NCBI GenBank assembly: GCA_013204395.1 | Contig: JABMNZ010000017.1 | Span: forward strand, 2,490 to 66,489 | Length of the DNA: 64,000 nt | Direction of reading: 5' to 3' | Source of the DNA: Parcubacteria group bacterium | GTDB taxonomy: Bacteria; Patescibacteriota; Patescibacteriia; UBA9934; GWF2-40-263 | In this document: in pieces, positions 2,972-44,874 of the stretch | Position numbering within the stretch: position 1 is the first letter of the stretch | Layout of the letters: every line of letters starts with the position of its first letter | Translations under genes and position numbers: made by a program | Notes under the pieces: generated by a model | What the model was told of the DNA's origin: nothing | Database searches by the model: none | The model's input: the letters and a program-made list of their open reading frames with translations, nothing else

Positions 2972-2973
2972 GT

Positions 2974-5663: not shown

Positions 5664-5838
5664 CCCACACCAGGCATACACAGCAAACGCGGCTTTTACA
5701 GCCATCCGGCACCCATACGAGGGGTCGGTATTTTGTTTTACCCCCATTTAGGTTGACAAAACGCCTAAACTGGGCTATTATCGTGTCTTGGTTTGAGGCT
5801 TTTCTCATACTCAAGACATCACTTCAAAGGAGGCGTAC

Positions 5839-7710
5839 ATGAACCGCTTTGCCCTGATTCTGGCCCTTGTGGTCGCTGGTTGCAGTCCCCAGATCGAGGA
5901 CGGCCCGCCGTTGGATTCCACGGCGGTGACCGTGAACGTGAACAAGCAGGCCCCGGCCCCGACGTCGGCCCCGCGTCAGGTTCGCGAGCCGGAGATCAAC
6001 GAGGTCTTCTCGAACCCCGAGACGCTCGCTCAGTGGCACGACAGCATGGACGCGGAGATCACCTCCGTTGCCGCCGAGCCCGATCCCCGTGAGATGTTCG
6101 AGGCCATCGCAGCCACGTACACCATCTCCCTGTCCAACCTCGAGCCGTTGTTTGGGAGCAAGGACATCTGGGGGGCTGACTACAACCCCAACGATGAGTA
6201 CACGGATCCTGATCCGGATCCTGTCGCCGAGCTCGATACCCTCGAGCAGGCTGGGTACCTGGAGCGGCAGGACCAGAAGTGGCACGCCGCCCAGATCTAC
6301 ATCGCTCACGGCAACAACGCCGACGCCAACCGCTGCGCCAAGCTCCTCTTCGACGAAGGGAGCTACAAGGTCGCGGCCATGGTGGCTGTGATGACGGGCG
6401 ACATGGACATGATGACCGCGGCCACGACCAAGATGGTCGACGCCCGTTACGTCACCAAGGTCTACGACGTGGTTCGCTACGCGTACGACAACGACAAGAT
6501 CCAGGCCGGGCGACACATTGTCGACACTCACGGATACGACTTGGTCGATGTTCTGGGTGAACAGACAGTGGGTTACCTGGCTCGTACCAGTCAACCGGAC
6601 CTCCTCGCTCCGATCATTGAGTCTTCCCTCGCACTGAGCGGTGGGGACTCGTGGAATGCCGATCAGTACGGGTCCGGCAACCTGGCGGCCGGCATTGTGA
6701 CTCTGGGTCGAACCGATCCTGAGCAAGCACGAGCGTTCGCTGCTCGCTACATCAAGATCCCACACATCAACGTGATGCTGTTGTGGAAGTGTGGTGAGGG
6801 GTGCTACGTGAGCCCCCTGATTGGAACGCTGGAACTGTACCAGCTGATCAAGGGTGATCCTCAGCTCAAGCAGATCTATCTGGACCGCACTCGCGAGTTT
6901 GCACAGGAGGCCTTCCCAGCAATCCACGTGGATGGCGAGGAACGGCCGCGGACCAAGTCGGTCATCCACGGTGTGATCGAGTACGCAGAGTGGAACAACG
7001 GGGAGATGAACGAGAGCTACGTGTTCACCTACCTGATGGCCGTCAAGGCAACTGGCGACCAGGACCTGATCGCTCTGTGGACCGAGATGGTGAACGACTT
7101 CGGTCATCGTCAGGGAGACTACAGTGGCGGGCCCATGGCCTTCGAGCGAGAGATCGGTCGAGGGATCCTGGGTCTGTCCGTGAACCCCACGGCCCCGGAT
7201 CTGGACCTTTCCCAGCAGTACCTGCTCGCGCGTCTCACCGGTGCTTCGGCCCCGGATCTGAGCCCGCTCTGGGACGAGCCTCGTGACAGCAGGCGCTACT
7301 ACAGCCACGACCCACCCAACGCGTCGCTGACTTGGCTGCTCAACATGTTCCTGAATGGGAGTATGGATCAGAACGCACAGGCGGCACTCTTGGCTACGTA
7401 CGAGCTGGTGGCGGAGAACGAGTACAGCACTCCAACTCGGCTGCTGAGCAAGAAGTTCGAAGCAGCCATGAGCGCCCACTACGGCGTTCCGAACACGCTG
7501 AACGCTCTCATGATCAAGCCCGACCGGGCTTTCTACACGAACAAGATAGCTGTCGACGAACGACAGCGTCTGATGCTGCCACCCATCGACCTGTACCCGG
7601 TTACCGAGGACGATGTCCTCGAGATCATCGCGCCGCACCTGCTGCGCATGGAGACCGAGTTGCCGGTCGCACACGCACGCCACATGGCCGCGCATCCGCC
7701 GCGGCCCTGA
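5839..7710 (+). CDS. Hypothetical lipoprotein (G+C-rich islet gene 2)
   Basis: AAGGAGG Shine-Dalgarno, signal peptide with lipobox LVVAGC. The equally long minus-strand ORF 5824..7728 is a GC-shadow ORF. Confidence 0.6.
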   Translation: MNRFALILALVVAGCSPQIEDGPPLDSTAVTVNVNKQAPAPTSAPRQVREPEINEVFSNPETLAQWHDSMDAEITSVAAEPDPREMFEAIAATYTISLSNLEPLFGSKDIWGADYNPNDEYTDPDPDPVAELDTLEQAGYLERQDQKWHAAQIYIAHGNNADANRCAKLLFDEGSYKVAAMVAVMTGDMDMMTAATTKMVDARYVTKVYDVVRYAYDNDKIQAGRHIVDTHGYDLVDVLGEQTVGYLARTSQPDLLAPIIESSLALSGGDSWNADQYGSGNLAAGIVTLGRTDPEQARAFAARYIKIPHINVMLLWKCGEGCYVSPLIGTLELYQLIKGDPQLKQIYLDRTREFAQEAFPAIHVDGEERPRTKSVIHGVIEYAEWNNGEMNESYVFTYLMAVKATGDQDLIALWTEMVNDFGHRQGDYSGGPMAFEREIGRGILGLSVNPTAPDLDLSQQYLLARLTGASAPDLSPLWDEPRDSRRYYSHDPPNASLTWLLNMFLNGSMDQNAQAALLATYELVAENEYSTPTRLLSKKFEAAMSAHYGVPNTLNALMIKPDRAFYTNKIAVDERQRLMLPPIDLYPVTEDDVLEIIAPHLLRMETELPVAHARHMAAHPPRP

Positions 7711-7734
7711 AAAGACGGCGAGGTTCATCCTCGC

Positions 7735-14052: not shown

Positions 14053-15570
14053 TTGAGCAATTCGATGCGACTGTGGAGGTGTACGATGGCCGACTTTCGG
14101 CAACTTGTGACGGGTGAATCTGTGCACGATTGGATCGCCCGACGCGTCGGGGAGATTCTCTCGGGTGCGGGAACAGCATTTGAGTGCGTGGCCGCGGTGG
14201 GCATGGACCCTGAGTTGACCAGTGTCTACTTCGAGGTGAGTGAAACACGCCCCAAGGGTGATGTTCAGCTTCTCTCGGGTGGAGCAGGTCTCTCGGTCAG
14301 CTTGGGCAAAGATCCCAGCAAGCTCTTTCCCGAGGACATCATCAGCCTGTTTGGTGGCGTGACCCTCAAGGATCAGGCGCTGGACTGCAAGCAAGTGGTC
14401 TTTCGGCTGCCGCTGCAGCACATCGATCCGCAGTTCGCCGCCATGGGGGTGCAAGGGGCACTTCTTCGTGGGGATGAACTGCAGACCAAGGTCACGAACC
14501 TCGGAATCGAAAGGGTCATCTTCTTCGCAGAAGAGGATCAGTTCCCGGCGATCGAGAAGGGGTTGGAACTCGCGCGCGCAGCCAACGTCAGTCGCTGGCT
14601 GAGCGCCATGCCCCCGAACCTTCTCAACGTGACGGCTTTTGCAACCTTGGTTGCCAGCCGCTTCGCAGAGATGGGTTTGGAGGTCTTTGCACCCAGCGCG
14701 GACGAGTACACCAAGATGGGTCTGCTCAAGGGTGTGGCTGCCGGCAACGGTGGGCACTTCCGCGTGCTGGCCGTGCGTATTGATCCGCTCAGCGAACCGA
14801 CCGAGAAGGTGATCGCCTACGTGGGCAAGACGCTGGTATTCGATGCCGGCGGCTTGAACATCAAGGGGGCACACGCACGTGGCATGAAGGGTGACATGGG
14901 TGGAGGTGCCAGCATCTTCGGCTCGGCCAGCTACCTGGCACAACACCGTGAGCTCCTCACGCGTTCGGTGGTTTTTGTCTGGACTATCACCGAGAACGTG
15001 ATTGGGCCCGACGCCTACCGACCTGACGACGTCCTCACCGCCTTCAACGGGGTGACGGTCGAGATCGACAACACGGATGCAGAAGGACGCTTGGCTCTGG
15101 CTGACGCCATGGCCTGGATCTGCACGAAGGTGGAGGTGACGCAGTTGGTGCCGGTGTGTACCCTCACAGGAGCGGCAGTGGTCGCCTTCGGGTCCGCGGC
15201 GTCTGCCCTGCACTTGAAGGACAGCCGTCGCCGTCTGGATGAAGTCGGCCGCTTGGAACGTCTCTCCTTTGACTCTGGTGACTCGGTGAACATCATCCAT
15301 CATCACCCGCACGCTGCGGCAATCCTTGCGTCGCACATCGCCGACATCAAGAACGCTGGTGGAGGCAACAAGAACGGTGGCTCCTCACAGGGCTTCGCCT
15401 TCCTCCTGAACTTCGCACCCAACGGTGTGGACGTCATGGAGCTGGACATTGCCGGCAAGGCGGGTCTCGACTTCGCGGGAGGAAACGGCCTGCAGGCTGG
15501 AACGAGTCTTCCGGCTGCCGTCTGGTTCGTCATCGCGATCGAGGGCACTTACGAGGTACCCGTCCAGTAG
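14053..15570 (+). CDS. M17 leucyl aminopeptidase family protein (G+C-rich islet gene 3, second copy)
   Basis: M17 signature NTDAEGRL plus VFDAGGLNIKG and GDMGGGA metal-binding motifs. Strong GC3 bias; the minus-strand 451-aa ORF is a shadow. Confidence 0.75.
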   Translation: MSNSMRLWRCTMADFRQLVTGESVHDWIARRVGEILSGAGTAFECVAAVGMDPELTSVYFEVSETRPKGDVQLLSGGAGLSVSLGKDPSKLFPEDIISLFGGVTLKDQALDCKQVVFRLPLQHIDPQFAAMGVQGALLRGDELQTKVTNLGIERVIFFAEEDQFPAIEKGLELARAANVSRWLSAMPPNLLNVTAFATLVASRFAEMGLEVFAPSADEYTKMGLLKGVAAGNGGHFRVLAVRIDPLSEPTEKVIAYVGKTLVFDAGGLNIKGAHARGMKGDMGGGASIFGSASYLAQHRELLTRSVVFVWTITENVIGPDAYRPDDVLTAFNGVTVEIDNTDAEGRLALADAMAWICTKVEVTQLVPVCTLTGAAVVAFGSAASALHLKDSRRRLDEVGRLERLSFDSGDSVNIIHHHPHAAAILASHIADIKNAGGGNKNGGSSQGFAFLLNFAPNGVDVMELDIAGKAGLDFAGGNGLQAGTSLPAAVWFVIAIEGTYEVPVQ

Positions 15571-31323: not shown

Positions 31324-32667
31324 ATGATGATCTATATACGGTGCATCAGCCTTTTTGATGTAATTGAAATAGGTAATTCATTAAAAAAAGACATTATGCA
31401 ACAAGATATCAAGATCCAATACGTTCCGATCACAAGTCTTAAATCAGCCGAATATAACCCTCGCTCCTGGGACGATTCAGCTAAAGAAAAGCTCAAAGCG
31501 AGCATTAAGCAACACGGTTTTTGCGATCCTGTGATCGTGAATAGTTCACTGGAGCGGAAGAATATCATCGTTGGTGGTCACTTTAGTACTGAATGCGCGA
31601 AGGAGCTTGGTTTTACAGAAGTTCCTGTCGTTTACGTTGAGTTAACACTAGAGCAAGAGAAGGCTCTCAACTTAAGATTAAATCGTGTTTCTGGAAGTTG
31701 GGATTTTGAACTCTTGAAAGAATTCGATATTGATCTTCTTCTTGATGTCGGGTTTGACGACACAGATCTTTCCAATATTTGGGACGATATTCTGTCGATC
31801 GAAGACGATGACTTTGATGTTGAAGGAGCTGTAGATGAAATAAAAGAACCAACAACTAAACTTGGTGATCATTATCAGCTTGGAAATCACAGGCTTCACT
31901 GCGCGGACTCGACAGATTTGGAGTCTGTGAAACGACTTGTAGGTGATCAGAAAATTGACATGGTTTTTTGTGACCCTGTCTACAATATTGGATTCAGTTA
32001 TAAAGACGGACTGACGACGAAAGGAAAATATGGAGGTAAAGCAAATGACACGAAATCAGATGAGGATTATCGGAACTTCATCAAAGCTTCGATGGAGAAC
32101 GCTCTGTCTGTAGCAAAACCTGATGCTCATGTCTTCTATTGGTGCGATCAGAAATACATTGGGCTTATGCAGTCGCTGTATGCAGAACTTGGCGTTGCGA
32201 ATAAGCGTGTGTGTATGTGGATCAAGAATAATTTCAACATGACACCTCACATCGCTTTCAACAAAGCGTACGAGCCATGTGTGTATGGAACGATCGGGTC
32301 GCCTTATCTTAATCCTGACGTCACAAACATTCATGAAATCGTGAATAAGGAGGTTGCTTCTGGGAATCGGTGCCTTTCAGACATTATCGACTTATTCGAT
32401 ATTTGGCTCGCTAAACGAGATAACGGAAATGAGTACGAGCATCCGACGCAAAAGCCGTTAACGCTTTGTGAGAAGCCCTTGAGGCGTTGTACGAAGCCAG
32501 GGGACAACGTCCTAGACTCTTTCGGTGGTGGCGGTAGTGTGTTGTTGAGCTGTGAGCAGATGAAGCGGAAGGCATTTTTGATAGATATAGATCCGATTTT
32601 CTGTGATGTGATAATTCGCAGGTTCGAGGAGATGACCGGAATCAAGGCTATTAAAATTAACGACTAA
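31324..32667 (+). CDS. ParB-like nuclease N-terminal domain fused to N4/N6 DNA methyltransferase (phage/plasmid-type orphan MTase)
   Basis: ParB-N region (DPVIVNS...IIVGGH) followed by motif IV DPVY and motif I FGGGGS in a beta-class MTase. The true start may be the ATG at 31396. Confidence 0.7.
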   Translation: MMIYIRCISLFDVIEIGNSLKKDIMQQDIKIQYVPITSLKSAEYNPRSWDDSAKEKLKASIKQHGFCDPVIVNSSLERKNIIVGGHFSTECAKELGFTEVPVVYVELTLEQEKALNLRLNRVSGSWDFELLKEFDIDLLLDVGFDDTDLSNIWDDILSIEDDDFDVEGAVDEIKEPTTKLGDHYQLGNHRLHCADSTDLESVKRLVGDQKIDMVFCDPVYNIGFSYKDGLTTKGKYGGKANDTKSDEDYRNFIKASMENALSVAKPDAHVFYWCDQKYIGLMQSLYAELGVANKRVCMWIKNNFNMTPHIAFNKAYEPCVYGTIGSPYLNPDVTNIHEIVNKEVASGNRCLSDIIDLFDIWLAKRDNGNEYEHPTQKPLTLCEKPLRRCTKPGDNVLDSFGGGGSVLLSCEQMKRKAFLIDIDPIFCDVIIRRFEEMTGIKAIKIND

Positions 32668-32670
32668 ACT

Positions 32671-33423
32671 ATGGATATCAAAACCGGAGATATTATCAGG
32701 CTTGGAGATCACTATCTTTTCTGCGGAGATTCAACAAAACGAGAGAGTGTAGAAAAGCTACTGAAGGACAGAGAGATCGATTTAATCCTGACAGATCCTC
32801 CGTACGGAGTGGCCTACGTTGAAAGTAAGGAAGGTTTTACACAAACGATCGCAAAACCGAAAATCATTAAAGGTGACGAGATTCAAACGGAGGCGAATTA
32901 TCGGAGCTTCACTTGTGCGTGGCTCACGCAGGCTCAGCCTTTCATGGCAAACAAAAACTCTGTCTACATCTTCAACTCGGACAAGATGGTCTTTGCTCTG
33001 CGTGAAGGTTTCCTGCAGGCTGGATTCAGATTCACACAACTCCTTATTTGGGCAAAGACTCACGCGGTGGTGGGGAGGATGGATTACTTGCCTCAGCACG
33101 AACTAATTATGTACGGCTGGTATGGCACGCATAAGTTCCATAAGTCTAAAGATAAATCCGTACTCATATATCCAAAACCAAACAAATCGAAATGGCATCC
33201 TACAATGAAACCTATTGGTTTACTTCGGAGGATGATTCTGAATAGCTCAAAGGTGGGTGACACGGTTTACGATCCCTTTGGAGGGAGCGGATCAACCCTT
33301 TTGGCATGCGAGCATACGAACCGTAGGTGCGTCATGATAGAGATCGATTTAGAGTATTGCCAAACGATCGTGATGCTTTGGGAGATGTTTACTAAGCAGA
33401 AAGCAGAAAAGGTCTATGAATGA
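32671..33423 (+). CDS. N4/N6 DNA methyltransferase (beta class)
   Basis: Motif IV DPPYG, then motif I DPFGGSGST; C-terminal ..IEID.. region. Confidence 0.75.
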   Translation: MDIKTGDIIRLGDHYLFCGDSTKRESVEKLLKDREIDLILTDPPYGVAYVESKEGFTQTIAKPKIIKGDEIQTEANYRSFTCAWLTQAQPFMANKNSVYIFNSDKMVFALREGFLQAGFRFTQLLIWAKTHAVVGRMDYLPQHELIMYGWYGTHKFHKSKDKSVLIYPKPNKSKWHPTMKPIGLLRRMILNSSKVGDTVYDPFGGSGSTLLACEHTNRRCVMIEIDLEYCQTIVMLWEMFTKQKAEKVYE

Positions 33424-33865
33424 ACATATCCCATCACCGTATCCTGCGGTGGCAGAACGACAGGATAAGCAAAAAGAGCTTGTTATTGAACAGCTAAAGA
33501 AAACGCCGATCATTCAGATTGTGTGCGAGAAGGTTGGAATATCACGCGCGACATTCTACAGATGGAAACAAGACGACCTGGTATTCGCAGATGCACTTGA
33601 ACATGCAATCTTTATGGGCGTTGAGCTTGTAAACGACATGGCAGAGTCACAGTTATTGTCGGCGATTCGTGATCAGAATATGACAGCCATTATCTTCTGG
33701 CTGAAGCATCGACACCGATCATACGGGACACGCGTTTCGTTGGATGCCAATCTAAACGTAAACAGAAGCTTGAGTACAGAGGAGCAAGAGACAATCAAGA
33801 AGGCTTTAAGTCTCGCGAAATTAATTCCTGAAAGCATTGCGTATGACGAACAAGAAACTGAGTGA
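33416..33865 (+). CDS. Putative terminase small subunit (HTH protein)
   Basis: HTH (VGISRATFYRWKQ) immediately upstream of and overlapping the terminase large subunit gene. Confidence 0.45.
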   Translation: MNEHIPSPYPAVAERQDKQKELVIEQLKKTPIIQIVCEKVGISRATFYRWKQDDLVFADALEHAIFMGVELVNDMAESQLLSAIRDQNMTAIIFWLKHRHRSYGTRVSLDANLNVNRSLSTEEQETIKKALSLAKLIPESIAYDEQETE

Positions 33866-35330
33866 TCAGATACTGCAGGACAAAGGTATCCGTACAGGGC
33901 TGACAACGGGAAGTCATATGTGGTTCTTTCATACCTATATCAGCGATTATGTGCAGTATCCGACGGCGCCATTTCAGAGACAGTTCTTTGATATCACCGA
34001 AGACACCTCAACCAAGCTCGTCGTCTTAACAGCGTTTCGTGGATCGGCGAAGTCTACAATATTCACTATGTCGTATCCGATTTGGGCGATTCTTGGAAAA
34101 CAGCAGAAGAAATTCGTTTTGATTTTGTCGCAGACTCAGTCGCAGGTAAAAATGCATCTTGCAAACTTAAAGCGTGAGCTTGAGTCAAATAGATTGTTGC
34201 GCCAAGACCTGGGACCATTCGAAGAGCAAGATGAGGAATGGAGTTCTGGAACGATTGTACTTCCGAAGTATGGAGCACGCATCACCGCGCTCTCTATGGA
34301 GCAAGGAGTTCGAGGATTGCGCCACGGGTCGCATCGTCCCGATATTATCATCTGTGACGACATCGATGACATATCATCTGTAAAGACAAAAGATTCACGG
34401 GATAAAGTGTGTAACTGGTTTTTGGGCGATGTCGTCCCAGCAGGAGACACGGATACGCGCATTATTGTTGTTGGTAACTTGTTGCACGAGGATTCGCTGA
34501 TGATGAGGTTGAAAAATCAAATTGAATCAGATCAACTGGATGGATCGTTCTTTTCGTTTCCCATTGTAGATGAGATAGATAAGCCTATCTGGCCAGGAAA
34601 ATTTAGGAAGCCAGAAGATCTCTTGAATCTGAAGAGGAAAATCGGGAACGAGGTCGTATGGCAACGGGAGTATATGCTTCGCATAATATCCAATACAGAT
34701 CGCGTAGTGCATCCCGAATGGATTCAATTTTATGACGAGTTACCAAAGCTCGCTGGAAATGTTGAACTGCGAGGGATCTATAGCGGGGTGGATCTGGCTA
34801 TCTCTGAAAAGACATCAGCTGATTACACCGCGATAGTCACTGTTGCCGTTTACGTTGTCGACAAGGAAGTTAAAATCTACGTCTTCCCAAACCCAGTGAA
34901 TCAACGACTGACATTTCCGAAAACTGTAGAACGCATAAAGATGCTTTACGACAACATCCATGAGAGTAATAGTAGAAACAAGATCTATATTGAGGATGTT
35001 GGATATCAGAAAGCCCTCATACAGCAACTTGAAATGGAGCGCTTGCCCGTTGAAGGCGTCGGGGTTGGCGGTACAGACAAAAGATCCCGCATCGCGCTCA
35101 CAAGCCCACATATCGAGTCTGGAAAGGTTTTATTCCCCAAGAAGGGGTGTAAAGATCTGATCATGCAGTTAGTCGATTTTGGTGCGGAAAAAAATGACGA
35201 TTTGGCTGATGCATTTTCCATGGTAATTAATAAGGCTGTCACAATAAAATACTGCACATTCGGAATCTGGGACTTGAATCAGGATGTAGGACCCATGATT
35301 GTTGGAGACATTATGAATAGAAGGTTCTAG
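33837..35330 (+). CDS. Phage terminase large subunit
   Basis: Terminase Walker A (AFRGSAKST), Walker B (IIICDDIDD), C-terminal RNaseH-like nuclease (GVDLAISEKTSADYTAIV). Confidence 0.75.
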   Translation: MRMTNKKLSDQILQDKGIRTGLTTGSHMWFFHTYISDYVQYPTAPFQRQFFDITEDTSTKLVVLTAFRGSAKSTIFTMSYPIWAILGKQQKKFVLILSQTQSQVKMHLANLKRELESNRLLRQDLGPFEEQDEEWSSGTIVLPKYGARITALSMEQGVRGLRHGSHRPDIIICDDIDDISSVKTKDSRDKVCNWFLGDVVPAGDTDTRIIVVGNLLHEDSLMMRLKNQIESDQLDGSFFSFPIVDEIDKPIWPGKFRKPEDLLNLKRKIGNEVVWQREYMLRIISNTDRVVHPEWIQFYDELPKLAGNVELRGIYSGVDLAISEKTSADYTAIVTVAVYVVDKEVKIYVFPNPVNQRLTFPKTVERIKMLYDNIHESNSRNKIYIEDVGYQKALIQQLEMERLPVEGVGVGGTDKRSRIALTSPHIESGKVLFPKKGCKDLIMQLVDFGAEKNDDLADAFSMVINKAVTIKYCTFGIWDLNQDVGPMIVGDIMNRRF

Positions 35331-35383
35331 CAACCTACCTAAAATGTAGGGCCTAGACTTACCCCACCGTAGCGGTATGTTGT

Positions 35384-36679
35384 GTGCATATGGAAGGTCT
35401 CGAAACAACTGCACTACATTACGTCTTATACGCGCGAAAATCGTCCGAAGCAGAGGAGAGACAGGCTTTGTCGATAGAGTCGCAGGTTAAGGAGATTTCA
35501 GCCTTTGCAGAGCAACAGGGGCTCACAATCGTGGAGATAAAGAGAGAAAGCCATTCCGCAAAGGATACAGGGCAGAGGAAGGTGTTTAACTCCATGATCC
35601 AAGGTCTTAGAGACGGCAAGTACCAGGGAATCGTCACATGGGCACCAGACAGGTTGAGTCGCAACGCAGGCGATCTTGGAGCGCTGGTTGACCTTATGGA
35701 CAGCAAGAAGCTTCAACAGATCAGAACACCAAGCCAGATGTTCACCAACTCTCCGAGCGACAAATTCCTGCTCATGATCCTGTGCTCGCAGGCCAAGCTC
35801 GAGAATGATAATAAGAGTGTGAATGTGAAGCGCGGACTACGTGCCAAGTGCGAGTTGGGTGTGCGTCCAGGCGTTGCGCCGCTTGGGTATCTTAACAATC
35901 CAAATCAGACAAAGGGACAAAGGAAGATAAATCTAGATCCAGAACGCGCGCATGTCATAAAAGAAATGTTCGAGCTAGTTGCAGAGCATGGATACAGTGG
36001 GCGCGACTTGTTCGTGTGGATCAATAAGGAAACGGGAATGCGTACACGTGGTGGAAAGAAGGTGTCGCTAAGTTCGATCTACCGCATGCTAAACACGCCG
36101 TTTTACTACGGTGAGTTTGAGTACCCACGAGGTGGGGGAGTATGGTACAAGGGCGACCACGATCCGTTAATATCAAAAGAGTTATTCGAGAAAGTACAGA
36201 AGCATTTAGACATACCGACTCGCGAAAAGAAAAGGTCTCACACGTTCAACTACACAAGGCTCATACGTTGCGGGGACTGCGGGTCGTTTGTGTCTGCTGA
36301 TCAAAAAATTAAGACATTAAAGTCTGGTGAGCAAAAGCATTACATCTATTACAGATGCTCTCGTGGTCGCGATCGTTTCTGCGCTCAGCCTCCGATCACA
36401 GAGGATGATCTTGTCGGCGAGATGTACAAAGTCTTCGATCAAATTAAGCTGGATGAAAAGAAACTCACACAAAATCTCAAGCGTGAGTTTCTTAAATACC
36501 GAAACTTCATGAGGGATGTATTCGGAGCAGAAGTTGCGCGTCAAAGCGATGACAAGCTGAATGTGAATGCGTACGCGCAGTACTTGCTCAAGACAGGATC
36601 GCGCGAGGAAAAGCGGGAGTTGCTTAAAAGCCTAGAAACTAAGCTCGTTCTTCAGAGTAGATGTCTAAATATCCCTTGA
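35384..36679 (+). CDS. Large serine recombinase (phage integrase-type)
   Basis: Resolvase catalytic domain with YARKSS catalytic Ser, a recombinase domain, a C-terminal zinc ribbon (CGDCGS...YYRCS) and coiled-coil. Confidence 0.8.
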   Translation: MHMEGLETTALHYVLYARKSSEAEERQALSIESQVKEISAFAEQQGLTIVEIKRESHSAKDTGQRKVFNSMIQGLRDGKYQGIVTWAPDRLSRNAGDLGALVDLMDSKKLQQIRTPSQMFTNSPSDKFLLMILCSQAKLENDNKSVNVKRGLRAKCELGVRPGVAPLGYLNNPNQTKGQRKINLDPERAHVIKEMFELVAEHGYSGRDLFVWINKETGMRTRGGKKVSLSSIYRMLNTPFYYGEFEYPRGGGVWYKGDHDPLISKELFEKVQKHLDIPTREKKRSHTFNYTRLIRCGDCGSFVSADQKIKTLKSGEQKHYIYYRCSRGRDRFCAQPPITEDDLVGEMYKVFDQIKLDEKKLTQNLKREFLKYRNFMRDVFGAEVARQSDDKLNVNAYAQYLLKTGSREEKRELLKSLETKLVLQSRCLNIP

Positions 36680-36778
36680 AAACAGCTTGTTTTAGAGGTA
36701 TGGTGGTTGACAGAAGTCCATTTTTCTGCTACATTTAGCCGTTGTTCTTTACTATCTATCAAGTTCCAATATCTCTTG

Positions 36779-36822
36779 AGAGTGGCGTTTTGCAGTTAGT
36801 GCAGACTTCAAAACGCCACTCT
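36779..36822. repeat. Perfect 14-bp inverted repeat with 16-nt spacer between recombinase and DGR target
   Basis: agagtggcgttttg ... caaaacgccactct. Confidence 0.4.
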
Positions 36823-36902
36823 TAATGAACAAAGGCAGGTTTCCGTGAGCGCATAGGGTGCGAACGGTGGCTAGTCGGAGTTGGCACAAGGAGGCAGGTC
36901 TT

Positions 36903-37730
36903 ATGGCCGGTCCCGATCCTGACCAGAACGCTGAGTTCTGGCGTCGTTTTCGCCGCTTCGGCGGCACCGATCCTACCATGAAGGAGCTCCTCGGAGACGA
37001 TGAGCTCATGGAGTGGTGGATCACGTCGCTCAACGAGCGACGCAACTCCAACCCGTTCGAGATCTCTGTGAAGGAGTCCCTCGATCGTCTGCGAGCCGCC
37101 TACGACGACACCTTCTGTCCGCTGGGCGCGAAGGAGCCGACGTCTTCGGAGCTCACTCACCTCGAGCGTATGGCGCCCAACTGGCCCAAGGGCAAAGACG
37201 CCTTCCGCAGCTTCCAGGTGCGGCCGGCGGCCTTCGGCGAGGGTCGCGATGGGGTCATCAATACCTTCGAGGCGACCTGCGCGAGCGTCAAGCTCATCCA
37301 CGACCCCAAGTTCTGGCGATGGGAGTTGCTCCTCTCGGGAGCGCATCCGTACCAGGGCGAGGACGTGGAACGCCTGCGACTACTGGGCGGCAACGAGCGC
37401 CACACTCCGGGGGTCTGCTGGGTCACCTTCAATCTGTCGGAGGGTCGGCAGCGCGCCGATGTCACGTCCGTGCGAAGCGGTCGGTCACTCTCGGACGCCG
37501 GGATCTTCGCTGCGCGGATGTTCCCGGATCGCGCCAAGGCGATCGACTACGAGAAGAAGCCGGCTTGGTTCTGTGCTGGCTACGAGTTGAACGTCCCCGA
37601 GCGCGCTGATGAGCCGTGGCAGTACGTGCCCTGCGTGCACCGCAACGTGCGCTACGGCACGGTGCCCCTGCGCGCCCACTGGCGCGGCGATGCCAACTCG
37701 CGCTACTCGGTGCCCTCCGTCGGGGAGTAG
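36903..37730 (+). CDS. DGR target protein carrying the C-terminal variable repeat (VR); G+C-rich islet gene 4
   Basis: AAGGAGG Shine-Dalgarno 8 nt before the ATG at 36903; the ORF is open from 36858. Its last ~130 nt match the downstream template repeat except at template adenines. Confidence 0.7.
   Translation: MAGPDPDQNAEFWRRFRRFGGTDPTMKELLGDDELMEWWITSLNERRNSNPFEISVKESLDRLRAAYDDTFCPLGAKEPTSSELTHLERMAPNWPKGKDAFRSFQVRPAAFGEGRDGVINTFEATCASVKLIHDPKFWRWELLLSGAHPYQGEDVERLRLLGGNERHTPGVCWVTFNLSEGRQRADVTSVRSGRSLSDAGIFAARMFPDRAKAIDYEKKPAWFCAGYELNVPERADEPWQYVPCVHRNVRYGTVPLRAHWRGDANSRYSVPSVGE
37592..37724 (+). repeat. DGR variable repeat (VR)
   Basis: About 133 nt, matching 38161-38293 with roughly 18 mismatches, all at positions where the other copy has A. 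Confidence 0.8.
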
Positions 37731-37862
37731 GCACTGGGAACTTGAACGCTTTGCGCTCGGAGGTTCTTGGGACTTGTCTCTTGACCCTTCGTTCGCGAAG
37801 CGAACTCGCCACGAAAAAGCGCACGCGCTCTACGTGGCACTGCGGCATCTGGAAAACGCTCA

Positions 37863-37897
37863 ATAGAAGAGTGTCACTCCCAGGTGCCGCTCTTCTA
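37863..37897 (+). terminator. Hairpin downstream of the DGR target gene
   Basis: atagaagag ... ctcttctat (9-bp stem, 17-nt loop) followed by tttcaa. Confidence 0.3.
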
Positions 37898-38160
37898 TTT
37901 CAACAATCTTTGATAAACTAGTAGTGGAAAGTAGGTCAGTGAGCCCGTGTTTAAGAATACTGGTCACCGAAATCTCTTGTTTCCCAATATACCGGCAGAG
38001 TTTCATTGTTCACGGATAATGAAAGTGTACGGTGGGACTAACAAGCACTCCGCATTTCATCTTGGAATCAACCTTCAGTGAAGGAGTGAGTTCCGCATAA
38101 AATTCAGAAGTCGGATGCGTCTGACTTTGGTGTCATGGAAGGGTGAAGTGTAAAGTGAGG

Positions 38161-38293
38161 CGTCCCCGAGAACGATAATGAGCCGTGGCAGAACGTGCCC
38201 TGCGTGAACCGCAACGTGAACAACGGCACGGTGAACCTGAACGCCAACTGGCGCAGCAATGCCAACTCGAACTACTCGGTGCCCTCCGTCGGG
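38161..38293 (+). repeat. DGR template repeat (TR)
   Basis: Non-coding copy of the VR that is enriched in AAC triplets; every VR/TR difference maps to a TR adenine. Confidence 0.8.
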
Positions 38294-38339
38294 AGTTCTT
38301 GTGTAGCAAAGAAGCGCTCTATCGCGCTTCTTTGTCTTC

Positions 38340-38714
38340 CTAGTTCTTTTTGAGATCCTCCTGAGTGCGTTTGATCCAGCCACCTAGCATCTTTCCTGTT
38401 TCAATAAGTCTGGACTCAATGTGGAGATATTGATTGTTCCCAATGCACTTGCAGTCCTTGGATAGTCGTACAAGGAGTTTAGTAAGATCAAGTTTTGCGC
38501 TTGCTTGTTGCAGAGTCGTTAGCTTCTCCTGGTCTTTGGTACTTGCGCTGGCGGTAAGGACCAATTCAAGCACCGTCAGAGCATGAAGCGAGACGCGTTC
38601 ACCCAAAGTGTATCGTTGTACTTTTGGAAACTTTACTATGATCTCATTCCACTCAGCATAAATATCGTATAGCGTATGAGCAATTGGGATATCACCAGGA
38701 CCGCCTCTGAGCAA
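38340..38714 (-). CDS. avd: Avd-like DGR accessory protein (four-helix-bundle, 23S-rRNA-IVS protein family)
   Basis: Family-typical segments (VKFPKVQRYTLGERVSLHAL ... GKMLGGWIKR). TTG start. Lies between TR and RT on the opposite strand. Confidence 0.7.
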   Translation of the reverse strand: MLRGGPGDIPIAHTLYDIYAEWNEIIVKFPKVQRYTLGERVSLHALTVLELVLTASASTKDQEKLTTLQQASAKLDLTKLLVRLSKDCKCIGNNQYLHIESRLIETGKMLGGWIKRTQEDLKKN

Positions 38715-38733
38715 CTTTCGATCTTTCCTAATA

Positions 38734-39735
38734 ATGCGGGGGGGGGGGAGAAATAGGCGTCCTCATAGGTTGGATAGTTATGATTTGTTTTCACGGATCA
38801 CTTCAATAGAAAACCTTTTTATCGCATGGGAACGTTTTCGTAAAGGTAAGCGAAGTCGCCAAGACGTAATGTTATTTGAACGCCATCTTGAAGACAACTT
38901 GTTTGCCCTACAAGCCGAACTTGCCTCAGGTGCTTACCAGCATAGTCCCTACGAGCGATTTACCATCCACGACCCAAAACAACGTACTATTCACAAGGCC
39001 GATGTAAAAGATCGCGTTGTCCATCAAGCCATTGTGAATGTTATCGAGCCCTTATTTGAGAAGCGATTCATTTATGACAGTTATTCATGCCGTGTAGGAA
39101 AAGGTACGCATGCGGCGGTGAAGAGGCTGAGGACGTTCTTGCTCAGAGATAGTATCAACAATATAAAAACAGTCTACGCTCTCAAATGTGACATTCAAAA
39201 GTTTTTCGCGAGTGTGAATCATCGAAAGCTTCTTCATCTTCTTGAAAGACACATTCACGATCCCGAAACCATGAAGCTGCTTACTGGTGTCATTGAAAGC
39301 TTTTCTGTTTCGCCTGGCGTGGGAATACCTCTGGGCAATCTCACAAGTCAATTATTCGCAAACGTGTACCTTCATGAGTTGGATTGGTTCGCGAAGCAAG
39401 AACTAAAAGTGCACCACTACGTTCGGTACTGTGACGATTTTGTGTTGCTCGCAGAATCCCAGGAAGAATGTGATGTATTCACTGAACGAATTGAGATGTT
39501 TCTTAAAAGTCATCTCCACATGCATCTGCATCCAAACAAAGTACACGTGAGGACCTGGAGGCAGGGTGTAGATTTTCTCGGATATATATTGTTACCACAC
39601 ACGACCATTTTACGACCGTCTACAAAGAAAAGGATGATCCGCAAAATCAACAAGGACAATGCAAGTTCGTACCTTGGTTTGTGTCAGCACGCAAACGCCT
39701 TTGATCTTGAACGAATGTTAAAGAACCTAGTTTGA
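38734..39735 (+). CDS. DGR reverse transcriptase
   Basis: RT motifs including the DGR-characteristic IPLGNLTSQLFANVYLHELD and catalytic YCDDFVLL. The ATG at 38734 is followed by a G11 tract; TTG at 38770 or 38785 are alternative starts. Confidence 0.85.
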   Translation: MRGGGRNRRPHRLDSYDLFSRITSIENLFIAWERFRKGKRSRQDVMLFERHLEDNLFALQAELASGAYQHSPYERFTIHDPKQRTIHKADVKDRVVHQAIVNVIEPLFEKRFIYDSYSCRVGKGTHAAVKRLRTFLLRDSINNIKTVYALKCDIQKFFASVNHRKLLHLLERHIHDPETMKLLTGVIESFSVSPGVGIPLGNLTSQLFANVYLHELDWFAKQELKVHHYVRYCDDFVLLAESQEECDVFTERIEMFLKSHLHMHLHPNKVHVRTWRQGVDFLGYILLPHTTILRPSTKKRMIRKINKDNASSYLGLCQHANAFDLERMLKNLV

Positions 39736-40137
39736 TACCGATTCTCGCATTCCTATATTTCCGTAGTCTTCCCCCCGGGACTTCTCTGTTGCACATGATT
39801 CTCTACCTTGACAGCCTGCTCTTTTGCGACAGGATTCGGTTTGGATTCCTTGACCCTAGGTTTCTTTTTTGATGAGTCTATGGGGCTACTTGGTTTTTGG
39901 GAAGCTATCGATCGTGGAAGCTGGATAGAAATTCTGCTTAGATTTTTTAGGGTAATCAGAAATTATTTCAGAACAAACTCGTTGACTGATTGCTACTGAT
40001 AAAATATCTGCAATTTGAATATGAGTTCGCATACTTGTATATGCATGATTGGATCATTATTATTCTTTTGAACTGTTTGGAGAGTTTATCAAACTAAAAA
40101 TAATTGACTTATATTAATGGTTTTGGGATTCCAATGA

Positions 40138-41748: not shown

Positions 41749-41854
41749 ATTTTTGCGTAGGGATTAATTGATATTGCTCAGGAACACAAAAGGCCTCCCT
41801 GAACTGACGGCAACAATCTTTCGAAAGCTACCCCGAGCCCTTGCGGAACTCGAC

Positions 41855-41902
41855 CCTACGCAAATAGATGTCAGCCAAGAAGGCCGTCAATATTTGCGTA
41901 GG
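41855..41902. repeat. 12-bp inverted repeat with 24-nt spacer
   Basis: cctacgcaaata ... tatttgcgtagg. Confidence 0.3.
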
Positions 41903-42256
41903 TGTTGCCATGCTCACAGGACGTGAGTTTAGGCAATTTGTATTGATATAGTAGCTTACAATCTTATTACCGTAAAGATATTCTGTGTACTGAAAGTTAA
42001 AAACAGGGAATGGGATTCGAACCGAGATTCTTCTCTCACCTTAGGGACGAAACAGGATTTTGGACAAAATGACCGACGGTGGGACTCGAACTTTTTCCGA
42101 ACCGAAAGCGACGAACAAGACGACGACGCACTCGAGTCTCGAACTTGAGCCGTGTGCGTTTTAAGTAACAAAGACGGGTAAAACAAAAGCACTCGACCGA
42201 AGTCGAGGCTCTGTGCAATCTGACGGACATGGGTCGCGTCAGAACTTTTTTGCTTT

Positions 42257-42331
42257 TGGCTCGGGGGGAGGGATTCGAACCCTCGACCCATTGGTTAACA
42301 GCCAATTGCTCTGCCGCTGAGCTACCCCCGA
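42257..42331 (-). tRNA. tRNA-Asn (anticodon GTT)
   Basis: Minus-strand cloverleaf with acceptor UCGGGGG/CCCCCGA, D-arm GCUCAGCGGCAGAGC, anticodon loop CUGUUAA, T-arm GAGGG-UUCGAAU-CCCUC, discriminator G and encoded CCA. Confidence 0.85.
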
Positions 42332-43656: not shown

Positions 43657-43709
43657 GACTCCCGAGGGGGGAGTCAGTGGAACACCGCTTCGTCGCGGTG
43701 TTTTCTATC
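43657..43709. terminator. Two back-to-back hairpin terminators serving convergent genes
   Basis: gactccc-gaggg-gggagtc (minus-strand T-run) and acaccgc-ttcgtc-gcggtgt followed by tttct (plus strand). Confidence 0.5.
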
Positions 43710-44874
43710 TGATCTCACGGAGGTTGCCGCCCCAGTGATGGGTCAGGCAGATCCAGGCGAGATCCTCGATCCAGCTAATGATCTGCAGTCGACCATTGTG
43801 TTGCATCCGACCGAACCCACCGTTTACCGGAAGCGGGATGGTGTCGGTGACGATGAGCTTGGAGATCGGACACCCAGCAGCGGTGAATCGCTCCTCAGCC
43901 TCTCCACAGAGAACGGCATGTGTTGCCGCACCCCATACATCTGCCGCTTCGTTGCCAGCAAGTGCCTTCAGCTCGTCCGTTCCACGAAGTACACGGGCGA
44001 ACTTCATCATTGAGCCAGCGGTGGCAATCTCGTCGTCGAACATGACGGCGATTCTTCCTCGAACCAGTCGAGGGTCGCCAACAATGCCGACGATCTTGGT
44101 CTCTGTTGCACTCAGACGTCGTTTGAGTGCCGTGACGTCAGGGAACGTGAGCCCCATCTCAAGCTCGATTGCACCACGTGCTGTATCAAAGCGCTTGCGT
44201 GCACTGTCGTCTGGGAAGACGAGACACAATCGTTCCGGATCCGGCACCAAAGAGATGACGTGCTTGAGCACGCGCCGAGTGAGGTACACAGGAGTGACCT
44301 GCCCAGGTCTTCCGACCATGGAGATCTGCTCGCTGTGCGGATCGACGCAGATCCACCGGTGCAGTCCAACGGCTCCACATGCTGCTTCTACCAGCGCCAT
44401 CAGCATGGGCGGCATGGTCAGCTCGGTGTCACCCTCGTCCTTGTCAGAGCGACACAGTGGGAAATAGCCGGTGATGAGCGTGATGCGAGCGGCGTGACGA
44501 CCTCCGACATACGAGAGCGTCCAGAAAAGGTCCATGAGCATCTGGTCCGTTCCGGGACCTGTGGTGATGACCATGACGTCGTGCTCGCGGACATGACGAC
44601 CACCGAGCCTTACGAACGTCTCTTTGCTGGGACGACGACTGAAGTCCGGGGTAGCGATGTCTACGGGCGTCAGTCTCTCGCCGGGTCGACGTCCGCGCTC
44701 TTCAATGAGCCTTGCGACGCTTTCTACCACGGGCTGAAAACTCGGAGTTCCAGGTACCAGGGAAAGTCCACCAACCCTGTTGAAGGGGGGGGCGCTTCCA
44801 TCTCTTGTACGCGCGGAGCCAAACGGACTCATCGCTCGACAGGCCCAGGATTCCTGTTGCCCGCTTGATTGCAT
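43705..44874 (-). CDS. Ribose-phosphate pyrophosphokinase (PRPP synthetase)-like protein; G+C-rich islet gene 5
   Basis: Prs-like N-terminal region (LSLVPGTPSF ... RLGGRHVREHDVMVITT), VDPHSEQI and the PRPP-binding loop MFDDEIATAGS. Strong GC3 bias. A C8/G8 tract sits in the N-terminal region, so the start is uncertain. Confidence 0.6.
   Translation of the reverse strand: MQSSGQQESWACRAMSPFGSARTRDGSAPPFNRVGGLSLVPGTPSFQPVVESVARLIEERGRRPGERLTPVDIATPDFSRRPSKETFVRLGGRHVREHDVMVITTGPGTDQMLMDLFWTLSYVGGRHAARITLITGYFPLCRSDKDEGDTELTMPPMLMALVEAACGAVGLHRWICVDPHSEQISMVGRPGQVTPVYLTRRVLKHVISLVPDPERLCLVFPDDSARKRFDTARGAIELEMGLTFPDVTALKRRLSATETKIVGIVGDPRLVRGRIAVMFDDEIATAGSMMKFARVLRGTDELKALAGNEAADVWGAATHAVLCGEAEERFTAAGCPISKLIVTDTIPLPVNGGFGRMQHNGRLQIISWIEDLAWICLTHHWGGNLREIR

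Follow-up and report, generated by a model that had tools for sequence, protein, structure and literature searches.

Introduction

Diversity-generating retroelements (DGRs) of CPR bacteria (Patescibacteria) were reportedly first described by Paul et al. 2017, tiny bacteria of groundwater among which this system, by which the tip of one protein is rewritten, is known to be common. As the catalogued copies of DGRs run to tens of thousands, another one is in itself ordinary. The architecture B3, that is template repeat (TR), avd (accessory variability determinant) and reverse transcriptase (RT) gene in this order with avd reversed, is found in 90% of the DGRs of CPR bacteria (Wu et al. 2018, NAR, PMC5758913), and a Patescibacteria-restricted 'DGR clade 2' has been described (Roux et al. 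2021, PMC8144416). In the DGR RNP of the Bordetella phage BPP-1, Sp47-56 of the spacer pair with TR117-129 as the primer:template duplex (Handa et al., bioRxiv 10.1101/2023.10.23.563531; PDB 8ub7 series), and Sp59-70 pair with a segment upstream of the TR as the stop duplex (Handa et al., bioRxiv 10.1101/2023.10.23.563531). Hairpins of DGR targets have been reported at 4-34 bp from the variable repeat (VR) and with the loop GRNA (Guo et al. 2011, PMC3240598), and structured ncRNAs beside bacterial RT genes, possibly parts of retroelements, are represented by the RT-1 to RT-19 motifs (Weinberg et al. 2017, Rfam).

The locus described here, situated in a stretch of DNA of 64 kb analysed as a whole (the window), is with high probability a complete DGR of the Patescibacteria (CPR) lineage, consisting of target gene with VR, TR, avd on the opposite strand and RT (Table 1), the mechanism proposed below included. 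A first-pass annotation of the same DNA had already recognized a complete element of four parts; all four passed independent tests, and its reading is supported by the A-only mismatches, the affinity of the RT, the Avd protein and the B3 layout.

Results

The end of a GC-rich ORF had been annotated as repeated non-codingly downstream, and both the coordinates of this repeat and its length of 133 nt proved exact. Ungapped comparison at offset 569, with which a MAFFT alignment agrees, gave exactly 18 mismatches where about 18 had been counted, and at 18/18 of them the TR has A, as claimed, with C (9), G (7) or T (2) in the VR. Non-A differences had been stated to be absent, and the non-A positions of the TR are indeed 100/100 identical in the VR with 18/33 adenines substituted, a distribution with P = 1.3e-13 for 18/18 mismatches landing on 33 adenines among 133 positions by chance. 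The homology ends sharply at both flanks, reaching 3 nt further (37728/38296) if a 1-nt difference in a G run is allowed, and a further TR copy was found on neither strand of the 64 kb, even when non-A positions only were scored. The A-only pattern recurs in dozens of related loci, and across related loci 921/969 TR/VR mismatches are at TR adenines. The description of the TR as rich in Asn codons and suited to diversify residues without creating stops likewise holds, as besides its 13 AAY codons it has 0 adenines at third codon positions and offers no substitution able to create a stop codon; up to 20 codons are variable, and the theoretical diversity amounts to ~3e19 proteins.

Of the annotated target feature beginning at 36858 the GC-rich ORF itself stands but not its start, GTG 36858 being a mechanical ORF start. 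Most likely the gene starts at ATG 36903, which is preferred because AAGGAGG is present 8 nt 5' of it and because the resulting protein of 275 aa is identical to GenBank NQV89343.1 (Parcubacteria group bacterium). Homologues of the target number 71, chiefly from Uhrbacteria/Patescibacteria, and the gene family is GC-rich everywhere, with a GC3 of ~0.87 versus ~0.49 in the adjoining avd and RT genes. The protein has no sequence match in Pfam, NCBIfam, PHROG or PDB and no structural match in BFVD, and neither a signal peptide nor a membrane segment was seen on inspection of the N-terminal sequence. Among related target proteins, nearly identical natural variants are separated by 16-18 residue differences, nearly all of them among the last ~40, a clustering at the C-terminus which supports activity at the level of the family only.

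The annotated DGR-type RT was retained, with both of its motifs located (SQLFANVYL at 39346-39372 and YCDD at 39427-39438). The protein matches Pfam RVT_1 with 3.2e-22 and carries LGNLTSQLFANVYL together with YCDD, in line with the [I/L]GxxxSQ plus YxDD signature of the DGR clade. Its best PDB match is 8ub7_A (E 3.3e-53, residues 17-305), which bears the database label 'Reverse transcriptase' only and which we take to be the Bordetella phage DGR RT bRT, with group II intron and other RTs at 1.5e-22 or worse; in this search the RT is far nearer to a DGR RT than to group II intron RTs. Phage relatives of the RT come from DGR-bearing phages. Judged by its sequence, the enzyme belongs to the DGR clade and has an intact active site, a class assignment that is made by database match scores and motifs. 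The G11 homopolymer close to the RT start is the sole homopolymer of >=9 (>=10 for A/T) in the 64 kb. A G tract of 7-12 is found at the same site in ~28/41 unique related loci, where differences in its length shift the RT frame; here, the RT ORF is in frame through G11 from ATG 38734.

The Avd-family gene reported beside the TR was confirmed by Pfam PF22296 bAvd (5.7e-16; 59.4 bits, passing the cut-off of 40), and NCBIfam NF033474 DivGenRetAVD was just missed, with 75.7 bits ~4 bits under the equivalog cut-off of 80; a PDB sequence match was not obtained. The gene lies on the strand opposite to TR and RT, an orientation kept in all related loci. Neither this opposite strand nor the structured RNA between VR and TR had been mentioned by the first-pass annotation. 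The same cassette in the same order is present in 15/34 genome loci and in practically every one of the 54 metagenome loci, and exact-sequence look-ups for sister contigs of the locus found none.

The cis elements looked for at the VR 3' end of a DGR are a GC-rich IMH and a downstream hairpin or cruciform. The VR 3' end is GC-rich here, and downstream of it a hairpin (37762-37787) is a candidate target-recognition hairpin or cruciform by analogy with those described previously (Guo et al. 2011, PMC3240598), its distance of 38 nt from the VR being outside the reported 4-34 bp and its loop being YTTG, not GRNA. Over 33 related loci, 83.7% of the cells are paired versus 21-62% when the partner is slid, with compensatory changes in 8/9 pairs and a covariation score reached by 0/500 shuffles. 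The terminator-like hairpin further downstream has counterparts with hairpin and T run at the matching position in relatives.

The 436-nt gap between VR and TR contains a conserved structured RNA. An element TGnTAnAAT precedes its first conserved block by 6-7 nt in 15/15 loci, and transcription would start at about 37926. This leader was found in ~70 related loci, always directly abutting the TR, and 54/54 metagenome pattern matches have the full leader motif directly upstream of a TR. RNAalifold gave compensatory changes in 37/54 pairs. On 20 TR-deleted constructs 63 pairs in 12 helices were obtained, with 95.2% paired (41-55% when slid), compensatory changes in 45 pairs and a score that 0/500 shuffles reach. 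Against Rfam 15 the leader matches no family, even when filters are relaxed and E values up to 10 admitted; at the gathering threshold, the scan of the window returned tRNA and LOOT only, both outside the leader, and relaxed scans of 36700-40100 and 37880-38360 gave chance matches only. One of the candidates considered, RT-17 (17.5 bits, E 7.7), falls within the RT gene, on its opposite strand, and was rejected as a chance match.

One leader strand pairs with the TR 3' end and then, contiguously, with a segment upstream of the TR, with covariation in both helices. The first pairing (38038-38051 with 38292-38306) is seen in nearly all loci by RNAduplex, and RNAalifold also predicts it de novo from the TR-deleted constructs; across 34 anchored constructs the paired cells make up 79.8% versus <=47% when slid, 8 pairs have compensatory changes and 0/500 shuffles reach the score. 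One mismatch is always found inside the long helix. Its ACUCC/GGAGU pairs are invariant, and as they never vary, this part of the helix is outside the covariation support. The second pairing (38052-38063 with 38140-38151, helix 9) comprises 12 pairs; compensatory changes are seen in 9 of these, and 95.8% of the cells are paired. By analogy with the Bordetella phage RNA we propose that 38038-38051 may be the equivalent of the primer strand and the second duplex that of the 'cPRT stop' duplex. At the position that follows the primer-like duplex, a G is found invariably.

Between the TR and avd lie just 13 nt of linker and a hairpin (38307-38334), which is likely the terminator of the DGR RNA. 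Most relatives have a hairpin and a T run at the same place after the TR; the hairpin is absent in a subfamily whose avd abuts the TR.

Table 1. Features of the DGR locus in window coordinates.
Feature	Position	Strand	Remarks
Target (variable-protein) gene	36903-37730	+	275 aa; GC 65.5%, GC3 0.84 in a window of 46% GC
VR	37592-37724	+	Last 44 codons of the target gene; in frame
Hairpin GGTTC-TT-GGGA [CTTG] TCTC-TT-GACCC	37762-37787	.	38 nt downstream of the VR; CTYGG repeats before it
Terminator-like hairpin and T-rich tail	37862-37899	+	Would end the target-gene transcript; inverted repeat
Extended -10 promoter element TGaTAAACT	37911-37919	+	Candidate; TGnTAnAAT kept in relatives
Conserved structured leader of the DGR RNA	37926-38160	+	~235 nt; abuts the TR; helices P1-P7
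Invariant blocks of the leader	within 37926-38160	+	GGARAGUAGG, CCGAAAUC, YACUCCG, AUAAAAUWCA, GGAUGCGUCUG, GGUG, GGAAG
Leader strand CUAACAAG-C-ACUCC	38038-38051	+	Pairs with TR 3' end and linker (38292-38306)
Leader strand GCAUUUCAUCUU	38052-38063	+	Contiguous with ACUCC; pairs with 38140-38151
Partner strand AGGGUGAAGUGU	38140-38151	+	9 nt upstream of the TR
TR	38161-38293	+	Non-coding; 33 adenines; 13 AAY codons in the VR frame
Partner of 38038-38051	38292-38306	+	TR 3' end GGAGU and linker U-CUUGU-G-UAG
Perfect 11-bp hairpin CAAAGAAGCGC / GCGCUUCUUUG	38307-38334	.	After the TR, between convergent TR RNA and avd
avd	38340-38714	-	124 aa; TTG start, GGAAAG in front
DGR reverse transcriptase	38734-39735	+	333 aa; start ATG 38734
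G11 homopolymer	38738-38748	+	Codons 2-5 of the RT ORF; avd/RT divergent junction
RT motif GIPLGNLTSQLFANVYL	39322-39372	+	Within the RT

Discussion

The locus combines an A-only TR/VR pair, an RT of the DGR clade, an in-frame VR at the 3' end of a gene and Avd, by which DGRs are recognized, although not all DGRs have an Avd. In the mechanism that we infer, a dedicated promoter with the extended -10 element (37911-37919) would give rise to an RNA of ~415 nt (~37926-38345) composed of leader, TR, short linker and terminator hairpin. The leader strand 38038-38051 would pair with the last TR bases and the linker and the contiguous 38052-38063 with the segment 9 nt upstream of the TR, so that the TR would form a loop bounded by two neighbouring duplexes. 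RT-Avd would attach to this RNA, cDNA synthesis would start at the TR 3' end, around G38291, and the RT would misincorporate opposite the 33 adenines and halt at the upstream duplex. The cDNA would replace the VR (37592-37724), with the hairpin 37762-37787 and the GC-rich 3' end of the VR as guides, and up to 20 codons (~3e19 variants) would thereby vary at the C-terminal surface of the target protein. Present activity of the element is a reasonable assumption from its sequence.

We hold it to be an even call whether the leader represents an RNA family not described before, by which this Patescibacteria DGR lineage is defined, and is the functional equivalent of the Bordetella phage spacer, circularly permuted so that the strands for primer and stop duplex lie upstream of the template. 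Somewhat unlikely, yet deserving serious attention, is that the locus is a DGR whose leader is a regulatory 5' UTR, an element for RNA stability or RT recruitment or a separate small RNA, with the primer-bearing spacer 3' of the TR as in the Bordetella phage. The priming role of the leader is indeed assigned by analogy, the more distant B3-type DGRs L023, L041 and L042 have long leaders that lack the ACUCC block, and stem-loops just downstream of the TR have been noted in 207 DGRs (Handa et al., bioRxiv 10.1101/2023.10.23.563531), as a hairpin follows the TR here too. A spacer 3' of the TR would in this locus be RNA antisense to avd, and in the subfamily in which avd abuts the TR and the terminator hairpin is missing, transcripts may enter antisense avd. 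Against such a spacer, the sequence of the post-TR hairpin is not conserved and what lies 3' of it is under constraint from the avd reading frame on the other strand. The leader, on the other hand, always abuts the TR, and its covariation with the TR 3' end and linker as well as with the upstream segment is hard to explain for an independent element.

That the DGR is part of a prophage or phage-derived island and serves tropism switching by varying a receptor-binding protein of virions, not a cellular protein, is quite improbable. Genes for a ParB-methyltransferase, a methyltransferase, the small and large terminase subunits and a serine integrase are located directly upstream (31324-36679), L001 has this block in front of its target as well and L035 a TerL homologue, a tRNA-Asn follows downstream, and the target lacks a signal peptide or membrane segment at its inspected N-terminus. 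Nevertheless, the interval from the housekeeping genes at 27.5-29.8 kb to those at 43.7-46 kb contains no portal, capsid or tail genes, an att-like repeat was looked for and not found, and beyond the cassette no neighbour is conserved across ~70 loci. The RNA pattern has 0 matches in 2.9 million viral contigs, the target is without a PHROG or BFVD structural match, and the Patescibacteria DGR clade has been reported as almost entirely cellular (PMC8144416). We give still less credence to a recently inactivated relic, with recognizable parts and a target no longer diversified, for example as the RT is switched off at the poly-G or a host factor is missing. Loss does occur, with roughly every second locus that carries a target homologue lacking a DGR within 6 kb and with RT fragments left in L006 and L032, and the frame-shifting variation of the poly-G length among relatives would fit as well; but the non-coding TR shows 0 non-A differences over 100 non-A positions, the RT ORF is intact, with catalytic motifs and in frame through G11, avd is intact and the VR is in frame without stops. 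Next to negligible is the prospect that a group II intron, retron or defence-associated RT lies by chance beside a diverged duplication; what the RT resembles and the A-only TR/VR differences refute it. The top NCBIfam match of the RT is a group II intron RT/maturase (TIGR04416, 161 bits), followed by weaker Drt3a and retron matches, yet all of these are far under their cut-offs (161 vs 300, 76 vs 200, 55 vs 235), in the PDB search the DGR RT structure leads by 30 orders of magnitude, and A-only mismatches with P ~1e-13 recur in dozens of related loci. The Rfam scans returned no group II intron or retron RNA, and the identity as group II intron was rejected on score and missing intron RNA, that as retron, DRT or Abi on the NCBIfam scores and the lack of Rfam matches.

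As a complete DGR, the element is one more instance of the known CPR type with architecture B3. Order and orientation are the same as in the CPR B3 DGRs, the host group agrees (Parcubacteria MAG here, Uhrbacteria among the relatives), the gene content is no different and, as here, most of their targets have been reported without recognizable domain. The structured leader 5' of the TR, the uniformly GC-rich targets and the poly-G at the RT start find no mention in PMC5758913, PMC8144416, the other literature searched (Paul et al. 2017 being outside it) or Rfam 15. The poly-G, which may be hypermutable, and the GC-rich targets, both seen throughout the lineage, may be linked to the working or regulation of the elements. 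Since avd is inverted between TR and RT in ~90% of CPR DGRs, there is no room for a 3' spacer, and the leader offers a concrete and testable answer, with exact helices, to the question where the priming and stop element of CPR B3 DGRs is located. For the engineering of targeted mutagenesis, too, a compact cassette of an RNA and two proteins out of a minimal genome could be attractive. Like the leader, the Weinberg RT motifs are structured RNAs near an RT, but no Rfam 15 family matches the leader.

The comparison group for the target protein is provided by the DGR variable proteins with a C-type lectin fold (Mtd; TvpA, PDB 2y3c; archaeal AvpA). Compared with Bordetella phage BPP-1, in which the order is mtd/VR, avd, TR, spacer and brt, avd here sits in reverse orientation between TR and RT, the target shows no homology to Mtd, and the element resides in a cell, or at most in the remains of a phage. 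The BPP-1 hairpin downstream of the VR has the loop GRNA, whereas the one here is 38 nt from the VR, with internal T.T mismatches and a YTTG loop. The BPP-1 spacer is 3' of the TR and ~140 nt long, the spacer-like RNA here 5' of the TR and ~235 nt long; the junction nucleotide is A56 in BPP-1 and an invariant G here, which differs from the 3' spacer with priming adenosine by which the BPP-1 arrangement is defined. Common to both are the Avd partner and the RT, aligned over residues 17-305 including the GIPxGxLTSQLFANVY motif, the adenine-specific transfer from an AAY-rich TR to the VR, a hairpin downstream of the VR and one continuous strand with two successive pairing partners, first the TR 3' end and next a segment just upstream of the TR. 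If the leader is the counterpart of the spacer, priming and termination by RT-Avd would be conserved across very distant DGRs despite a rearranged RNA.

Repeat pair and protein components

The window element is supported as an intact-looking diversity-generating retroelement (DGR) of the type known from CPR bacteria (Patescibacteria), and what is gained over those already known is a leader RNA together with a proposed, testable permuted-spacer role for it. The order template repeat (TR)-(avd)-reverse transcriptase (RT), with avd reversed, is architecture B3 (Wu et al., 2018, PMC5758913), and a Patescibacteria-restricted DGR clade, almost all of it cellular, has been described (Roux et al., 2021, PMC8144416); as order and clade are both published, the element is therefore of a known kind.

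The variable repeat (VR) at the end of the target gene and the TR, each 133 nt, were aligned with MAFFT and compared ungapped at an offset of 569. They differ at exactly 18 positions, for which the first-pass annotation had given about 18, and in the tabulation every mismatch falls on one of the 33 TR adenines (P = 1.3e-13 by chance for 18/18), the upstream copy carrying C (9), G (7) or T (2). All non-A TR positions (100/100) are unchanged in the VR, in line with the earlier reading that non-A differences are absent. Similarity drops off abruptly on either flank, with 3 nt more of homology (GGGAGT) once a G run is allowed to differ by 1 nt, and a search of both strands of the window, scoring the non-A TR positions only, found no additional copy. 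Read in the VR frame, the TR has 13 AAY codons and no third-position adenine, and no adenine substitution can create a stop codon, which bears out the stop-free, Asn-codon-rich design noticed before; the theoretical diversity is ~3e19 proteins. Exact-sequence look-up of RT, Avd and target returned no contigs with other VR variants, and look-up of P0002 led to one related contig.

The RT carries RVT_1 (Pfam) and the motifs LTSQLFANVYL and YCDD. Its closest solved structure is 8ub7_A (E 3.3e-53, residues 17-305), labelled in the database only "Reverse transcriptase" and presumably the bRT that Handa et al. studied in Bordetella phage, whereas group II intron and other RT structures match at E 1.5e-22 or worse and the NCBIfam models for group II, retron, Drt and Abi enzymes all score far under their cut-offs. 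Relatives in the phage collection share no more than 41% identity and come from phages that carry a DGR, among them Vibrio VP585, Bordetella phages, crAss-like phages and the archaeal virus ANMV-1. The first assignment to DGR-type RTs, rather than to a group II intron or retron lineage, is thereby upheld, as is that of the 124-aa Avd, which passes Pfam bAvd (59.4 bits, cut-off 40) and reaches 75.7 bits on the NCBIfam DGR-Avd equivalog, under its cut-off of 80.

The target most likely starts at the ATG at 36903, downstream of AAGGAGG. Its product matches, without a difference, a hypothetical protein that GenBank lists for a Parcubacteria MAG, and the 71 homologues come chiefly from Uhrbacteria/Patescibacteria; neither as single sequence nor as profile did the target match Pfam, NCBIfam, PHROG or PDB sequences. 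The AlphaFold model, built with 63 homologues, is of good confidence as a whole (pLDDT 86.7) but weak across the VR.

Features of the DGR and its surroundings (window positions)
Feature	Position	Strand	Remark
ParB-methyltransferase, DNA methyltransferase, small and large terminase subunits, serine integrase	31324-36679		upstream of target
Target gene (275 aa)	36903-37730	+	ends in VR
VR	37592-37724		
CTYGG/CTTGR repeats	37725-37761		stop codon to hairpin
Hairpin, 4-nt loop	37762-37787		downstream of VR, after CTYGG repeats
Terminator-like hairpin closing target gene	37862-37899	+	just upstream of -10 element
Extended -10 promoter element TGnTAnAAT	37911-37919	+	6-7 nt 5' of first block, 15/15 loci
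First conserved leader block GGARAGUAGG	from 37926	+	from spacer alignment
Leader strand CUAACAAG-C-ACUCC	38038-38051	+	pairs with 38292-38306, GGAGU-U-CUUGU-G-UAG
Leader strand GCAUUUCAUCUU	38052-38063	+	unbroken continuation of 38038-38051; pairs with 38140-38151
TR	38161-38293		
Post-TR hairpin	38307-38334		13 nt after TR, before avd
avd	38340-38714	-	
RT	38734-39735	+	
G11 tract	38738-38748	+	5' end of RT ORF, avd/RT divergent junction; sole long homopolymer in window
LOOT RNA (RF03000)	41809-41935	-	Rfam 53.2 bits, gathering score 46.4; downstream of DGR
tRNA-Asn	42257-42331	-	adjoins LOOT RNA, downstream of DGR
GC-rich islands	4389-7728; 14053-15570; 43705-44874		

Related loci

A scan of relatives with one genome per species gave 34 loci (handles L001 onward denote related loci or contigs) with a target homologue, 15 of which hold the whole cassette, that is target/VR, a spacer of 330-450 nt, TR, opposite-strand avd and RT, with TR/VR differences that are adenine-only or almost so. 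The rest have no DGR inside 6 kb, two of them keeping RT fragments, and such homologues may be targets of a distant DGR, or what is left after a DGR was lost. DGR-less within this distance are about half of the genomes with a target homologue, namely L004, L007, L011-L013, L015, L016, L018-L022, L026, L030, L033 and L034, with two tandem target copies in L007; in L006 and L032 an RT fragment alone adjoins the target gene.

Across the 59 loci with a detectable TR/VR pair, 921 of 969 mismatches lie at TR adenines, and proteins of related 90% clusters that are otherwise nearly the same diverge at 16-18 residues, of which almost all belong to the C-terminal ~40. This is evidence of natural diversification of the target family, the natural variants being those of the family and not of the window locus. 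One TR serves two VRs, in two targets, in L039 (TR 4486-4607, VRs 4023-4144 and 2964-3078) and in L081. A second, more distant B3-type DGR, its RT 44-49% identical, occurs in L042 (866-2323), L023 (1476-3462) and L041 (2693-4722).

A conserved leader RNA with long-range pairing

Aligned between VR and TR, the spacer consists of near-invariant blocks interrupted by insertions of variable length, and RNAalifold on 15 sequences predicts 54 pairs, 37 with compensatory changes. Leader relatives were gathered with nhmmer and pattern searches: a degenerate single-block pattern matched 54 metagenome contigs, all of which hold the entire leader by nhmmer, and none of 2.9 million viral contigs. Where these metagenome contigs have flanks, TR, reversed avd and RT come directly after the leader, and the VR that precedes it is adenine-biased. 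As the target of some leader-bearing DGRs shares no more than 24-32% identity with that of the window, or no detectable similarity, the leader travels with the retroelement and not with the target. Three scans of Rfam 15, including relaxed thresholds, gave no family, and no description was met in the literature searched, which did not include Paul et al. 2017. The second DGRs of L023, L041 and L042 each have a leader of their own, 310-360 nt long, which has an extended -10 element and some shared motifs but lacks ACUCC.

One stretch of the leader, made up of ACUCC and the 7-9 nt that immediately precede the invariant YACUCCG, can pair in almost all loci with the TR end, which reads GGGAGU or GGGACU in the ACUCC pairing, and with the linker directly 3' of it. 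In 34 anchored constructs this TR-end helix has 79.8% of its cells paired, against at most 47% with a slid partner, 8 pairs with compensatory changes and a covariation score matched by no shuffle; the ACUCC/GGAGU pairs are invariant across loci and one mismatch is constantly present in the long helix. The strand continuing the leader side forms a helix of 12 pairs, 9 of them compensatory, with a partner 9 nt 5' of the TR, and both long-range helices were recovered de novo by RNAalifold from 20 TR-deleted constructs. The full structure, 63 pairs in 12 helices, is 95.2% paired compared with 41-55% when slid and includes 45 compensatory pairs, and on every measure 0 of 500 shuffles equalled the observed value. 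Covariation across the aligned sequences shows the leader helices. A candidate pairing of the leader block CACCGA with UCGGUG of the TR was rejected, as the alignments inspected hold no covariation for it. The post-TR hairpin is missing from one subfamily.

For the hairpin downstream of the VR RNAalifold predicted nothing, so that it was tested as a hand-specified structure; over 33 loci it is 83.7% paired versus 21-62% when slid, with compensatory changes in 8 of 9 pairs. The 4-6 CTYGG/CTTGR repeats before it, ~8-9 nt apart, are conserved across loci.

Genomic neighbourhood and composition

The DGR lies in a 12-kb stretch bordered by housekeeping genes, with DUF5655 and DUF4352 proteins also downstream. 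Its phage-like upstream block is probably a phage-derived remnant, either of a prophage or as a satellite-like island, beside a self-contained DGR cassette. A role of the target in a phage is a minor alternative. The terminase block stands directly upstream of the target also in L001 (1755-5739) and partially in L035. The block holds no capsid, portal or tail genes, no att-like direct repeat was found between it and the tRNA-Asn, and no neighbour gene is conserved across loci.

The target is GC-rich in 17/17 unique DGR loci (GC 0.62-0.69, GC3 0.81-0.94) irrespective of the neighbouring RT and avd, whose GC is ordinary (0.35-0.59), and homologues without a DGR are likewise GC-rich, some to a lower degree. 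The homologues considered for composition are those of L001-L034, L035, L073 and L083. Loss of sense-strand adenines as the sole cause is insufficient, because in the third position T (11.5%, RT 30%) is depleted as well as A (4.9%, RT 21%). Three other islands (GC 0.52-0.60, window 0.46) contain two long Pfam-less ORFs overlapped by shadow ORFs on both strands, an M17 aminopeptidase and a PRPP-synthetase-like gene, and none resembles the TR. The place of the poly-G tract is conserved, with lengths of 7-12, in L001, L002, L003, L005, L017, L025, L035, L058, L073 and L083; L035 and L058, identical in the flanks, are one G apart, a difference that decides whether the upstream start codon is in frame. 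The tract could be a slipped-strand (phase-variation) switch of RT expression, or assembly noise.

Comparison with the Bordetella phage system

Phage BPP-1 needs a hairpin/cruciform downstream of its VR (PMC3240598), of which the window hairpin is reminiscent, but it is farther from the VR and has a different loop. In the BPP-1 ribonucleoprotein, Sp47-56 of the spacer 3' of the TR pairs with TR117-129, setting the priming Sp A56 opposite the first template base, and the adjoining Sp59-70 pairs with an avd segment upstream of the TR as stop element (Handa et al., bioRxiv 10.1101/2023.10.23.563531). The window RNA has the same connectivity, but its spacer equivalent lies 5' of the TR, just 13 nt and a hairpin separate TR and avd, and the junction nucleotide is G in the window family and A in BPP-1. 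The shared connectivity, with the spacer equivalent moved 5' of the TR, leads us to propose that the window DGR RNA is a circularly permuted version of the Bordetella arrangement, in which the leader helices would act in priming and termination.
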